From contig JAPLLR010000047.1 of NCBI GenBank assembly GCA_026387455.1, positions 1,828-65,827 of the forward strand: DNA of 64,000 bases, written 5' to 3'. Position 1 is the first letter of the stretch, and each line of letters begins with the position of its first letter. Made by a program: the position numbers. The DNA is from Candidatus Omnitrophota bacterium (GTDB lineage Bacteria; Omnitrophota; Gorgyraeia; Gygaellales; Profunditerraquicolaceae). Shown one piece after another: positions 51,001 through 57,000 of the stretch.

Positions 51001-54000
51001 AATCCGCGGCATGCCCCAACGCAACATTCGCCTCAACCGTATCCATGCCTTTATCTTGCAAAGCATAAGCCTTGATCTTTTCTACCAGCCCGATTCCCCG
51101 GCCTTCCTGGCTCATGTAAAGTACAACTCCTTTATTTTCTTTCTGGATCGCCTGCATAGCCAAATCTAACTGCTTGCCGCAGTCGCAACGCAAAGAGCCA
51201 AAAACATCCCCGGTAAGACACTCTGAATGCACGCGCACTGTCACCGGCTCACCTAAAACAAACTCTCCCATCACTAAAGCAGAATGCACCTTGTTATTAG
51301 TAAGATCCTTATACAGGATCAGATTATACATGCCGAATTCCGTAGGCAACACAGTCTGAGCAACTCTTTCGATCAGTTTCTCCGAGCGCCTGCGGTATTC
51401 AATAAGATTAGAGATAGAGCAGATCTTTAAATTATGCTGCTTGGCAAAATCCAGCAGCTCGGGCAGGCGGGACATTGTCCCGTCGTCATTCATTATTTCG
51501 CAGATCACTCCTGCCGGATACATTCCCCCAAGCTTCATCAGGTCAACAGAAGCCTCGGTATGCCCTGCCCTGACTAAAACTCCTCCGGATCTAGCGCGCA
51601 AAGGAAAAATATGGCCGGGGCGGATCAGGTCTTCAGGCTTACTTTGAGGACTGATTAAGACTTCTATAGTGCGGCTGCGGTCAGGAGCGGAAATGCCTGT
51701 AGTTACGCCTCTTGCCGCATCCACGGAAATCACCCAAGCAGTCTTAAAGGGGTCTTCCTTCTTAGAATGAGCCCGGTCTTTAAGCATGGGCTCAAGATCC
51801 AGCTGCTGCAGCCTTGGCTCTTCCATAGGCACACAGATAAGCCCGCGGCCGTACTTAGCCATGAAGTTGATGTGTTCAGGCCTTGCCGCGGAAGCAGCCA
51901 TGACCAGGTCGCCCTCATTCTCGCGGTCCTCATCATCAACGATGATCACCATGCGGCCTTTTTTTAAATCTTCTAGAATTTCTGGTATAGAGTTAAACAT
52001 AAATGAAGGCATAAGTTATGGAGGGCTCATTTCATTCGCACCGACATAACTTATCTGCCTGAATTTACCCCCCGCGATTAGTTTTGCCTGCAAAACTGCG
52101 GGGGGTGATGTCTCCTTAAAATAAAAAGCCCGAAGGTGATCTCCGGGCAAAGAAATATCAATCTCCTTCCATCTGGACTTTGCCGAGAAACGGCACCCCA
52201 ATCTATCCTTTAAAATTGGGGGTGCCCCGCTACTGCGGGACCCCCAGCTTTATAGGATCAGCTGGGGTATGCTTTCGGCATAACCATCGGCTCCGGAATT
52301 TTACCGGATCTTGCCTCGGCTCTCGCCGAAGCTCGCGGGCTCAACCGCCGGTCAGGATTTTCGCCTTGCCCTGAAGATTAATCTTCTTTAAGTATATCAA
52401 AAAAACTTACCTTGTCAACACCTTTAAGAGGCACTATAATATAGTTATGCTGCAACATATTATAAATCAAGTACATAAATCCCTGATAAAATCCGCCAAA
52501 ACCATCGCGGTAGCCGAATCCTGCACCGGTGGCCTGCTCTCTGCCATGCTTACCGAGCTTTCCGGAAGCTCAAAATACTTTACCTTAGGCGTAGTCACTT
52601 ACAGCAATAAAGCCAAAGAGCGGATCCTCGGCATCCCTTCTTCTGTTATTGCCAAAAACGGTGCGGTTTCCGAAATTGTAGCTAAACTAATGGCGCAAAA
52701 AGTGCGCCGACTAGCCAAAACCGACTTCGGCATTAGCATCACCGGCATCGCCGGACCTGCTGGTTGCGCAGAAGTGCACACCGGCGCCTCCTTTAGCGCC
52801 GGGTGCGGCACAACCCGCAAGCCCATCGGCACCGTCTTTATCGCTATAGCAGCCAAAAACAAAACACTTTGCAAACAATTCCGCTTCCGCGGAACCCGCC
52901 GCAGCATCAGAAACAAATCCGCCCTGGAAGCGGTAAAGTTATTAAATATTTTAGTGGAAACTAGATTTTGATTTGATATGATTTCGAGTCTTGATTGGGG
53001 AATAAAATTTAGTAAGCCCTTGCAATTAAAGCAGTTGCGATGGCTTTTTGTTTGAAATAAAATAAAGGTAAAAGAGTAATTATGAAATTAGGTCATAAGA
53101 TTGGCTTATCAATATTAGTTATAGTTCCAATTTGGATATTCATCCGAGCTCAATTAATTTACAGGGAAGGCCCAAAGATTGTTAAGATAATTGAAAAATA
53201 TAAAGTAGATAATAACAAATACCCAGAAACATTACAGCAAATAGGGGTAAGAAGTTTTTTACATCCTATGTATTTTTTGACACAAAAGAACAAGTTTACT
53301 TTAATGTATTCAATTTTCGCCTATGCCAGATGGTATTATAACAGTGAAAAAAATGAATGGGGAACGCTGGATTAACCATATGTATTCATCCTTCTCTTTC
53401 TCTTTTAAAAAATATATCAAAGAACTTTCTCGGCCTTGGAAATTAATTTCTTTTTCAATTGCTTTAGGGTATTACATTTGGGGTGCCTATTACTATAAGT
53501 GCCCTACTTGGGATGTGCCTGTTTCTATCATTATGAGCATCTTAACCTATGTCTTTGCCCCTTGGACCGTAAATTCTATCTGCTACCTTATTCAAAAACG
53601 GCCAAGATATTGGATTGTTAAATCTTTAGTTTGCATAGCAGTAATCTATATATGCGCATCAGCATCTTATGAGCTATATAACTGGTGGCATCTGGGCTAC
53701 TGGCCGCCACCCACATATTGGACGAACTTGTGGTATTCAGGCTGTGCATTTATTGCAGCAGGAATACTATGGAAGTTTGAAGGCACTCTAAAGGAGTTAA
53801 TCTCTGGCCTCCTTGTAGATTTAAAGAAAACTACTAAACTAGCGAGATAGCTAACTCTTTTTACCCTTTCTCCACCTACTTCGTTTTTAGCGGCTGGCTT
53901 GGCTTGGTTCGAGCGGGACGTCCGAGGAACCGAGCGGGCATGGCGCACGCCTTCGGCGTGCAGGCGAGGTCCACAGGCTAACAAGGAGAGTAAGTTAGCG

Positions 54001-57000
54001 GGTGGCTTGGCTTGATCCGAGCACGGCCATAAGCCGCGCGCAGGACAAGCCAAGACAGGACCCGCTAACCTAACACAGAAAGTGCAGGCCAGCCTCTCCT
54101 ATAAGGCTGGGCCTAGCCCGCAATAATCAAAGCAAGACAGACGCTACATAAACAAACATGCGCACATTCATAGCCATTGAATTACCTAAAGACATAAAAG
54201 ACTCCCTTAGCAGGCTGATTAATAAACTTAAGGAAACTGGTGCCGACGTCAAATGGGTCGCTCCCCAAAACATCCACCTTACCCTCAAGTTTCTAGGCGA
54301 ACGCGACGACAAAAAAGTAAAAGAAATCAGTGAAATCCTCGATGAAGTCGCCAGGAATCACTTGGCCTTCCAGATCCAGATCAACGCCTTAGGCGCTTTT
54401 CCGAATCTGAATTCATCAAGAGTAATCTGGGTAGGAATCGATCAAGGAGATATTGAAACTAAGAATATCTTTAAAGATTTGGAAGATTTGATATGCAAGG
54501 TAGGCATTCCTAAAGAAGACCGCGCCTTCTCCTCTCACATCACCATAGGCAGGACCAGGTCAGCAAAAAGATTAGCAGAACTTTCTCAAGTTATAACTTC
54601 CTTGAACGAATCTATTGGCAGGGAAAATCTTAACTTTACGGCAGGCTCAATCACTCTCTTCAAAAGCACCCTCACCCCAAAAGGACCCATCTACGAAGCT
54701 TTGAAAGTCGTAAATCTTACCACCATCTGAAGCGTAATATTGGTATAAATCCCAGCCACAATATCATCGCTCATCACCCCAAGACCGCCTTTTAACCTCT
54801 GCAGACCATTAGCAGGATAAGGCTTTAAGGTATCCAGCGCCCGGAATATTAAAAACGCGAAAAATATAATTGCCGGATCCGGCGGCAGGAATAGTAAGCT
54901 GATAAGCATTCCGCTTACCTCATCGATCACAATTCTTCGGTCATCTTTCTTATTAAAGACCTTCTCTGCTTCCTGACTTGCCAAAAACCCCAGCACCGTC
55001 ACTATAAAAGTGACAAAAACCAGATCAAATGCACTTCCCTTAACAAAAAAGAATATCGCAAGTCCCGCGAGACTACCAAATGTCCCGGGAACAAGCGGTA
55101 AATATCCCACAAAAAAGAAACTGGAGATCAGTTTAACGAGGAAGCGATGGTAGGAGCTCATAAAAAGGGATTATAACCGCGTGATGATTTTACGGTTATC
55201 CCAAAGATAGGATACGCCGGAGTAAAGCGTAAAACCTACGGTGACCAGCATCAGCGAATAGATGATCGTGCGGAACATCTTTTCCCATTCCGGATTCCAG
55301 GTGAAATAAGTCAACATCGTCTCTTTGGCCACAATAAAAAGCAAAATGACAAAGATAACCGACATTTGGGAAACGGTCTTGTGTTTTCCGGCGCGCGCCG
55401 CAGACAGAACTTTGCCCTTATTCAAAGCGAATAATCGTAGTGATGTGATCAATAGCTCGCGCGAGATTATGATCACAAACATCCAGGCTTCGATCAACTG
55501 CAACTGCACAAAAGTGGCAAAAGCCGCCAAAACCAGGATCTTATCCGCAATAGGATCCATCAGCCTGCCGAAATCAGTGATCAGGTTCATTTTCTTGGCG
55601 ATCATCCCGTCCAAATAATCGGAAATTGCCGCGGCGCTAAAGACCACCAGCGCAAAAACCTTTGCCCAAAACCCGTGCACAAACAAAAAGAACATAAAGA
55701 CAAAAGTCAAAACGATCCTTAACATGGTTATTCTATTGGCGATATTCATTCAGCGTCTCCTACAAGATCATATTCAAGAGTATCGGTAATATTAACTTTG
55801 ACAAAATCACCCGATTTAAGCGAATTCTTACTATTAACATAAACCATACCATCCACTTCCGGAGCATCATACTGGCTGCGGCCTATGTATTGATGGTTCT
55901 GCGACTCATCTATCAAAACTTCCAGCGATCTACCTAAAAACTTACTATTAACCTCTTGCGAGATTTCCTGCTGCAAAGACATTACCTGATTGAAACGCTC
56001 AAGTTTAACGTCCTTAGGGATCTGACCCTTAAACGAATAAGCCGGTGTCCCCTCTTCGCGCGAGTAAATAAAAGCGCCCAGGCGTTCAAACTTTACTTCC
56101 TTGATAAACTTAAGCAGTTGCTTAAATTCCTTATCCGTTTCAGAAGGCATTCCCACTATCACCGAGGTGCGTAGCGCCACCTGCGGGACAACCTTACGAG
56201 CCTTCTCTATCAGTTTTATTATACCAGCTTTTATGATTTTGCGGTTCATTAATTTTAAGATTCTACTTGAGATATGCTGAACCGGCAGGTCGATATATTT
56301 ACAGATCTTAGGGTCGCCCGCGATGAGCTTCAAAAGTTCATCGGTTACGCGCTCAGGATTAAGATACAGTAACCTGATCCAGGCGATATTCCCGGAATTT
56401 TTGGAAATTTTTCTTACTATATCAACAAGATCCGTCTTACCTTGTAAATCTAAACCATAACCGGTGATATCCTGGCCGATGATATTTAACTCCGAAATCT
56501 TTTCTTTATTAAAGAGCTTAACTTTATTCAGGATCGACCGCTCATCAAGACTGGTAAATCTTCCCTTGATAGCCGGGATCACACAATAGCTGCAGTTATT
56601 AATACATCCTTCACAAATCTTTAAATAGGCGAAATGTCCCGGCGTGATAGGAAATCTTATAGTCTCCTGATCTAAAGACACCTTGCCGATAAAAGCATCT
56701 ACCTCGGGCAATTCTTTGCGCAGCAGATCCTTGTATCTCTGGGCAAGGCAGCCATAGACAATGATTCTTTTAAGCTTGCCCTCTTTCTTAAGCGCCACTA
56801 AATCGAAGATTGCGTCTATGGACTCCTGCTTCGCTTCTTCAATAAAAGCGCAGGTGTTGATGATCGCCACCTGCGCCTTATCCATATCCACTACCCGGTG
56901 GCCTTTGAGGCTCAAAGCCCCGACGATACTTTCCGAGTCTACCAGATTGCGCGGGCAGCCGAGACTTAGTATGCCGACCCTCTGCTTCATCGGGGGATGG

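Follow-up and report, generated by a model that had tools for sequence, protein, structure and literature searches.

A GC-rich block upstream of thpR in an Omnitrophota genome, probably a nest of dispersed hairpin-forming repeats

The GC-rich block immediately upstream of thpR in a 64-kb stretch of a Candidatus Omnitrophota genome (contig JAPLLR010000047.1; the whole stretch is called the window below) is probably a nest of three non-coding hairpin-forming repeats of an Omnitrophota lineage, similar to miniature inverted-repeat transposable elements (MITEs) or to repetitive extragenic palindromes (REPs) and REPINs, and not an RNA dedicated to thpR. The repeat reading follows from dispersal among unrelated genes, random orientation, deletion size classes, identical copies, nesting, and differences in presence and absence between relatives. 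The block spans 53887-54146 (260 nt, 63% G+C against 44% for the genome), contains no credible open reading frame (ORF), and ends 11 nt upstream of the thpR start codon. An earlier note on this DNA had placed its end at 54122; the feature runs 24 nt further, as the 3' arm CAAAGCAAGACAGACGCTA (54128-54146) pairs with the 5' arm at 53887-53906. In the proposed arrangement, an outer A-type long element would host a B-type hairpin and an X-type double hairpin in its middle. The components are as follows.

53887-53978, plus strand: 5' part of an A-type long-form element; the first 56 nt match, nearly base for base, the 172-nt A-type long form at locus L087 (4535-4706, minus strand)
53945-53961, plus strand: small hairpin GCACGCC-TTC-GGCGTGC; by alignment it fills the slot where other long forms carry a variable hairpin after GAGCGGGCAYGG
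53995-54068, plus strand: complete B-type short-form hairpin, 74 nt; covariance model R1 gives 68.3 bits (E = 1.9e-20), and 30.3 bits on the minus strand
54074-54113, plus strand: X-type double hairpin, 40 nt, CACAGAAAGTG then GGCCAGCCT-CTCCTATA-AGGCTGGGCC; nhmmer E = 2.5e-13, a partly circular value, since the query alignment consisted of this copy and four others, including the one at 47274
54117-54146, plus strand: 3' end of the A-type long form, CCCGCAATAATCAAAGCAAGACAGACGCTA, which includes the 3' clamp arm and aligns with the L087 3' end CCCGCGAGAAACAGGACAAGGCAGACGC

The nesting accounts for the most conspicuous feature of the block, a direct repeat of 28 nt (53887-53914 and 53995-54022, 89% identical in a repeat search), because the A-type element and the B-type element inside it each contribute a 5' arm. 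Copy 1 corresponds to the A-type 5' clamp arm, TTAGCGGCTGGCTTGGCTTG (53887-53906), and copy 2 to the B-type 5' arm. The A-type 5' part also holds GAGCGGGCATGG (53932-53943), the word used for retrieving long forms, and GCGAGGTCCACAGGC, which again matches the L087 long form beyond the first 56 nt. On 53887-53947 the B-type covariance model gives a weak match (8 bits, E = 4.7). At the other end, locus L002 retains GAAGCAAGACAAGACAGACGCTAA, and an inverted repeat pairs the A-type 3' end with 53887-53906.

The B-type hairpin of the window is built from a basal clamp TTAGCGGGT/ACCCGCTAA, an asymmetric loop with GG opposite ACAGG, a stem CTTGGCTTG/CAAGCCAAG, and a terminal stem-loop. The repeat search places the long hairpin arms at 53991-54003/54060-54072 and 54003-54027/54033-54057, and a CCAGCCT/AGGCTGG hairpin is read from the sequence at 54089-54110. 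The direct repeat, the long hairpin with its helices, the GCACGCC hairpin and the terminal hairpin described in the earlier note are all present where it had located them.

Composition, folding and scans for known RNAs

The compositional boundary is sharp. G+C content lies between 0.29 and 0.44 upstream and reaches 0.63 at 53900-54099, against a mean of about 0.44 for the 64-kb window. Across the block, the sole ORF that reaches 40 aa is an antisense 118-aa frame with a TTG start (53697-54053), so the switch to GC-rich, ORF-free sequence stands as first described. We reject the antisense frame as a real protein, since it has no Pfam match and its composition follows from the repeats. At L002 an antisense ORF of 129 aa spans the same spacer.

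The segment 53880-54140 folds far better than its shuffled versions on either strand, with -119.1 kcal/mol (z = -5.0) on the plus strand and -119.9 kcal/mol (z = -5.3) on the minus strand. The similar scores indicate that the stability of the block is that of a palindrome, which singles out neither strand. No Rfam 15 family reaches its gathering score anywhere in the window, and at E <= 10 there are only miRNA-like hairpin matches at chance level. ARAGORN detects no tRNA or tmRNA in the window; the earlier note had likewise seen no motifs of tmRNA, RNase P, SRP, or FMN or cobalamin boxes. An intrinsic terminator is rejected as well, as no T-run follows the hairpin on either strand and the block has no terminator-like site.

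Dispersal and placement of the B-type family

The clearest evidence for a repeat comes from the central hairpin. A two-arm pattern, TTAGYGGGTGR-N(9-69)-AGGACCCRCTAA, whose 23 specified bases leave no chance expectation in the window, matches at least 120 metagenome stretches. Among the matches listed are 116 B-type instances with distinct flanks, comprising 101 distinct sequences. Three sequences of 70-86 nt recur unchanged, each in three to four unrelated flanks, and several contigs carry two copies at separate positions. The nearest ORFs of these listed copies belong to 175 different Pfam families, mostly housekeeping, and thpR adjoins only about 5 of the 116. Four of the pattern loci (L108, L131, L145 and L184) are orthologous cinA-thpR spacers of related Omnitrophota, which links the family to this phylum. 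Viral contigs contain no match to the pattern, and a phage origin is rejected on that ground.

Placement follows a simple rule. The copies occupy AT-rich intergenic gaps of about 20 nt, a few bases past a stop codon and in either orientation. For 47 copies an ORF lies within 120 nt on each side; their flanking genes are co-directional in 39 cases, convergent in 5 and divergent in 3. Relative to the genes, 21 elements point the same way and 18 the opposite way. Median spacing is 7 nt from the upstream stop codon and 15 nt to the next start. Local GC skew shows no bias either (28 vs 37, p = 0.32). An orientation bias, which would have favoured an RNA function or a replication-coupled single-strand mechanism, is therefore rejected with respect to both genes and GC skew.

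The earlier note had proposed a single novel non-coding RNA, or a regulatory leader related to RNA-end healing by ThpR. Neither idea survives the dispersal data, because the central hairpin stands in at least 116 contexts beside unrelated genes in either orientation, the 3' hairpin is a member of another dispersed family, and the elements are not specific to thpR. A false lead is thereby removed: the position of the structure beside an RNA-repair gene is no evidence for an RNA partner of ThpR.

Two B-type copies were observed at L129 (339-406 and 935-1007), just downstream of a 5S rRNA gene (1047-1163, minus strand) at the end of an rRNA operon. Logan contig L001, the only public contig that encodes exactly this ThpR, ends inside the B-type hairpin at a point corresponding to window position 54040. 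This end is consistent with the breaking of assemblies by repeats and hairpins.

Structure and covariation of the B-type hairpin

A consensus was derived from 75 short forms. It opens with a basal stem of 9 bp, continues through an asymmetric loop into a second stem of 8-10 pairs, and ends, past a tandem G.A motif (CGAG opposite CGAG), in a small terminal stem-loop. In the clamp, the 9-bp stem TTAGCGGGT/ACCCGCTAA is followed by a bulge of three bases (AGG), a G-C pair, and then a G.A pair; of the copies, 53 have G.A beside the bulge, 12 have A.G and 8 have G-C. A kink-turn reading of the clamp is rejected, as the helix past the 3-nt bulge opens with Watson-Crick pairs and not with tandem G.A. 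The terminal repeat is 9 nt long and perfect, and the second stem extends it.

The second stem covaries freely (UUGGGUG, ACGGGGAUGC, GAGGAC and others), and 95.2% of the cells in the alignment are paired. Double-change cells number 151; shuffles give 42.7, and controls with slid partners no more than 40. Compensatory changes affect 11 of 18 pairs. Between the window and L002 the hairpins are 94.6% identical, with one compensatory C-G to U-A replacement that turns GCGGG/CCCGC into GTGGG/CCCAC. The hairpin is conserved beyond this genome, with compensatory changes.

Clamp-bounded elements, short and long, range from 42 to 200 nt. Their interiors extend from a 20-nt stem-loop to a multi-stem structure of about 150 nt, and the smallest deletion derivatives keep the clamp alone. 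The invariant asymmetric clamp suggests protein recognition of a folded single strand.

The long form

A search with the word GAGCGGGCAYGG recovers about 15 elements of 165-205 nt bounded by the same or a slightly different clamp; the A-type element would be about 170 nt when intact. All long forms share the invariant 12-nt GAGCGGGCAYGG block, GAGCG junction strands, a hairpin with an ACGCYGGG loop, and a closing GCGAGAAAC. Mixed clusters of long and short forms, adjacent or nested, occur at L008, L087, L099, L138, L148 and L156.

Such architecture invites another idea, in which the long form would be a structured RNA present in many copies, acting as a ribozyme, as a guide or scaffold, or, with its repeated GAGCG motifs, in sequestering a protein, and the short forms would be its derivatives. 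The invariant block, the conserved loop and the repeated junction strands agree with it, as does an RNAalifold model from just 10 long forms, which predicts 36 pairs, 18 of them with compensatory changes. Rfam returns no match for 11 loci with long forms, nor for one long form alone, as a new RNA class would also lead one to expect. Against this idea, gaps of about 20 nt inside operons leave no room for a promoter or terminator, orientation is random with respect to transcription, deletion derivatives down to 42 nt retain nothing but the clamp, and a single-stranded DNA hairpin predicts palindrome covariation equally well. We regard the structured-RNA explanation as improbable.

As a separate observation, L138, a contig with both long and short copies, carries a c-di-GMP-I-GGC riboswitch (3048-3145, minus strand) at 73 bits, above the gathering score.

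The X-type family

The 3' double hairpin of the block represents a family of its own. The window holds two occurrences of the motif CACAGNAAGYG (0.11 expected), and X-type copies are also present at L002, L019, L088, L120, L185, L110 and L003, with covarying stems. Beyond the copy in the block, two others stand out in the window.

47274-47325, plus strand: X-type copy before rplU (gene identified by PF00829); nhmmer E = 2.4e-12, partly circular for the reason given above
52765-52806, plus strand: X-type copy in frame in cinA, supported by protein alignment, DNA alignment with L002, and an nhmmer match at 52769-52812

The cinA insertion, 42 nt long, lengthens the conserved GPxG-GTxxKP loop by 14 residues, CAEVHTGASFSAGC, and is missing from 8 orthologues, including that of the close relative L002. 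Presence and absence differ at other sites too. X-type is missing from the thpR spacer of L002, though present in that of the window, and an X-type copy of L002, flanked by an imperfect 18-nt duplication, corresponds to an empty orthologous site in the window.

Weaker X-type copies lie at 52186-52274, in the spacer between ribBA and cinA. This divergent spacer (52013-52446, 434 nt) is very structured (z = -6.9), with X-like hairpins; upstream of ribBA, no FMN riboswitch reaches the Rfam gathering score.

Read on the minus strand, the copy at 47274-47325 stands immediately before the rplU ribosome-binding site. The same placement recurs elsewhere: the reverse strand of X-type directly precedes the Shine-Dalgarno sequences of rplU (L21), rpsO (S15), an HU gene, pgk, a CsgG-like gene and others (window 47274-47325; L019 996-1043 and 2644-2692; L088 5318-5366; L120 1921-1965; L148 about 950-1010). 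On this strand the first hairpin has the loop UUAUAGGAGA and the second the loop UUUCU, and the two loops are partly complementary. The copy near thpR points the opposite way to those that precede ribosome-binding sites. Besides being a repeat, X-type may be an undescribed module of the 5' untranslated region in highly expressed genes of Omnitrophota.

The cinA-thpR locus across relatives

A scan of species-representative genomes with the neighbouring RimO protein assigns the window to Omnitrophota, and the closest locus is L002, whose RimO is 90% identical. The order rimO-pgsA-pgpA / thpR-cinA / ribBA is conserved across the phylum, and synteny and spacer lengths show that cinA and thpR abut or overlap in most relatives. 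The gap of 1187 nt in the window is therefore a derived state, filled by the GC-rich block and two AT-rich orphan ORFs. The genes and ORFs of this region are as follows.

52447-52971, plus strand: cinA C-terminal-domain gene (PncC-like); PF02464, E = 6.5e-51
53082-53850, plus strand: two overlapping AT-rich orphan ORFs (97 and 175 aa; 29-40% G+C); no Pfam family above threshold
54158-54730, plus strand: thpR, encoding a LigT-family RNA 2',3'-cyclic phosphodiesterase; PF02834, E = 1.6e-30, as first proposed

At the same place, L002 has an unrelated 117-aa orphan ORF (11032-11385) followed by a shorter version of the block, which retains the 5' arm TTAGCGGCTGGCTTGGCTT, the 74-nt hairpin and the 3' arm GCAAGACAAGACAGACGCTAA and lacks the segment 53907-53975 as well as the 3' hairpin. 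The orphan ORFs of the window show no homology to that of L002 and have no counterpart in any fetched locus. Homology between the two loci resumes about 10 nt before the repeat arm. Unrelated orphan ORFs at one spot in both genomes indicate a small strain-variable islet that is not part of the repeat.

The exact coincidence of these ORFs, immediately 5' of the A-type arm in both genomes, could suggest that the block is an attachment site or scar of the AT-rich islet, with hairpins serving as attC-like recombination sites for small orphan genes. The attC-like architecture, with its conserved basal stem, bulged bases and variable terminal structure, points the same way. We consider this very unlikely. 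The two nested 5' arms account fully for the direct repeat; the elements lack an inserted gene in L014, L131, L145 and L184; they also lack the core triplets of attC, AAC closing the 5' box on its inner side and GTT within the 3' box; no cassette array is seen; neighbouring tyrosine recombinases are XerC/D-like; and the pattern is without a match in viral contigs. The earlier suggestion of "an att-site or duplicated remnant" was accordingly half right: the notion of a duplicated remnant comes close to the two nested 5' arms, and the att-site finds no support in loci that carry the same elements without inserted genes.

The contents of the spacer differ among relatives. Hairpins in L014, L029 and L008 share the TTAGCGGGTGG...CAGGACCCGCTAA clamp around interiors of 20 to about 180 nt. 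A different family of long hairpins, GCTTTTGCGTTTTTGCTGAAGGCGC...GCGCCGGAAGCGAAAACGTAAAAGC, occupies the cinA-thpR spacer at L016 (9123-9306), L019 (10828-11064) and L018 (5410-5947). At L018 this other family is inverted, and no thpR match lies between pgpA and cinA.

These comparisons bear on the possibility of a cis-acting intercistronic leader, perhaps a co-opted repeat, that controls processing, stability or translation of thpR in a cinA-thpR transcript. The B-type hairpin sits in this spacer in one orientation in the window, L002, L014, L108, L131, L145 and L184; the near-identity and the compensatory pair between window and L002 fit a leader, and so does the end of the block so close to the thpR start. 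The opposing evidence is broader. The same element adjoins about 175 unrelated gene families in both orientations, cinA and thpR abut without any spacer in many relatives, the interior differs wholly between lineages (42 nt to about 200 nt), and the other hairpin family fills the same spacer in L016, L018 and L019. Gene-specific leaders keep to one gene family and one orientation; across the family as a whole neither holds, and orientation is constant at the thpR site. We attach little probability to a leader.

A single old insertion, vertically inherited, best explains why the orientation is constant in seven lineages. Under the dispersed-repeat reading, the copy in the cinA-thpR spacer would be old and would have grown in this lineage through the X insertion and the retention of long-form arms. 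An influence on thpR, if any, would be a side effect: a very stable RNA structure in the presumed cinA-thpR transcript could separate genes that otherwise are adjacent or overlap.

Elsewhere in the window lies its longest perfect hairpin (39402-39445), whose 16-bp inverted-repeat arms, GGGGACGGTTCTAATT / AATTAGAACCGTCCCC, enclose a loop of 12 nt.

Mobilisation and the weight of the evidence

A plausible scheme involves an enzyme acting in trans that would recognise the clamp and copy or move the element, as in MITEs or REP/REPIN. Elements would land in or beside one another and so produce mosaics such as this block. The flanks T|TA...TA|A are compatible with TA duplication in a TTAA-like site. 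The mobilisation mechanism is one that we infer. None of the 25 commonest Pfam families among the 150 nearest neighbours is a transposase family, a survey in which a single-copy gene is easily missed, and the search for a parent insertion sequence found no pair of clamp arms around a gene in the fetched loci.

Several observations weigh against the repeat interpretation. The first concerns the enzyme and its target. In the 1.9 Mb of fetched DNA, a tblastn search with an approximate IS200 TnpA query returned nothing; at L099, two inverted long forms enclose ordinary genes (CrcB-, DUF190-type- and phosphorylase-like by eye); and the flanks, with T at -1 in 72% and A at +1 in 71% of copies, define no clear target-site duplication. 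The second is the modest density. The covariance model finds one full B-type copy in the 64-kb window and two further copies (L002 and L014) in 1.1 Mb of rimO neighbourhoods. Density on large contigs is about one per 50-150 kb, and the 9-mer TTAGCGGGT occurs 13 times in the window against 14.5 expected; this lack of enrichment indicates low copy density in this genome. Third, the search pattern accounts in part for the invariance of most clamp positions; neither the stem covariation nor the invariant C ahead of AGG depends on it. Fourth, occupancy of the spacer in the same orientation in at least seven lineages would fit a locally selected role too, and the spacer copy may have been co-opted locally. 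Finally, the invariant 12-nt block, conserved loops and multi-stem fold of the long form exceed what a simple transposon end needs, and this elaborate predicted fold could point to a function of its own.

A more far-reaching version holds that the B-type and long forms constitute an undescribed structured mobile element. Its clamp would be read by a hairpin-specific enzyme, the long form of about 170 nt would be active and maybe catalytic or guide-like, and occupied sites would serve as hot spots for elements and small foreign genes, as here and at L002. We hold this version to be unlikely, and retain the account of dispersed MITE- or REP-like repeats.

The findings document two small palindromic repeat families in Omnitrophota, an uncultivated phylum. 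Our literature search found no description of palindromic repeats in Omnitrophota and no paper with the conserved words. Such repeats break assemblies, give rise to spurious ORFs rich in GC, and are able to enter genes in frame. A strict clamp around a variable interior also offers a simple handle for a census of the elements and for finding the enzyme that recognises them.

Comparison with known systems

Integron attC sites resemble the elements in their conserved basal stem, strand-distinguishing extrahelical bases, terminal structure of variable length, and position just past an ORF. They are rejected as an identity, as the ends TTAGCGGGT and ACCCGCTAA lack, on both strands, the R'' box RYYYAAC and the R' box GTTRRRY. 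The copies also differ from attC in being single or of mixed orientation, without arrays, with no integron integrase nearby and with housekeeping genes instead of cassettes as neighbours. Rickettsia palindromic elements (RPEs) have in-frame insertion as their hallmark, which X-type matches in cinA in one case. Unlike RPEs, X-type is much shorter, and most of its copies lie just upstream of the ribosome-binding sites of highly expressed genes.

MITEs with TA targets, namely Correia/NEMIS of Neisseria, RUP of Streptococcus pneumoniae and ERIC, show closer agreement. They are likewise non-coding elements of 40-200 nt with terminal inverted repeats, size classes from internal deletion, insertion in AT-rich spacers, and TA at both ends. 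Co-transcription with flanking genes would be a further likeness, transcription of the present family being presumed. Terminal inverted repeats, a small non-coding body, multiple copies and presence/absence differences, including empty cinA-thpR sites in many relatives, are all found here. The differences are that these elements have no known parent insertion sequence with matching ends, that compensatory changes keep their whole length paired and not the ends alone, and that the two ends differ by a conserved bulge.

The other close parallel is with REP, bacterial interspersed mosaic elements (BIMEs) and REPINs of enterobacteria and Pseudomonas, which are mobilised by REP-associated tyrosine transposases (RAYTs). 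No RAYT or other Y1 transposase was found here, either in the 1.9 Mb of fetched DNA with the IS200 TnpA query or among the commonest Pfam families of the neighbours. The foot differs as well: REP ends in a free GTAG, and B-type in a TTAG paired with CTAA, an end set by the search pattern. Copy density appears lower than that of REP, and REP lacks the multi-stem interior and invariant 12-nt block that the long form has. The likenesses lie in the short GC-rich imperfect palindromes that form long hairpins, in an extragenic position, often within an operon and in either orientation, in clustered mosaics, in identical "master" copies at several sites, and in orthologous positions kept for long. 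As a repeated extragenic palindrome, B-type is represented by 116 listed intergenic instances with covarying stems. The closest analogues of the elements are thus REP/BIME/REPIN and TA-target MITEs such as Correia.

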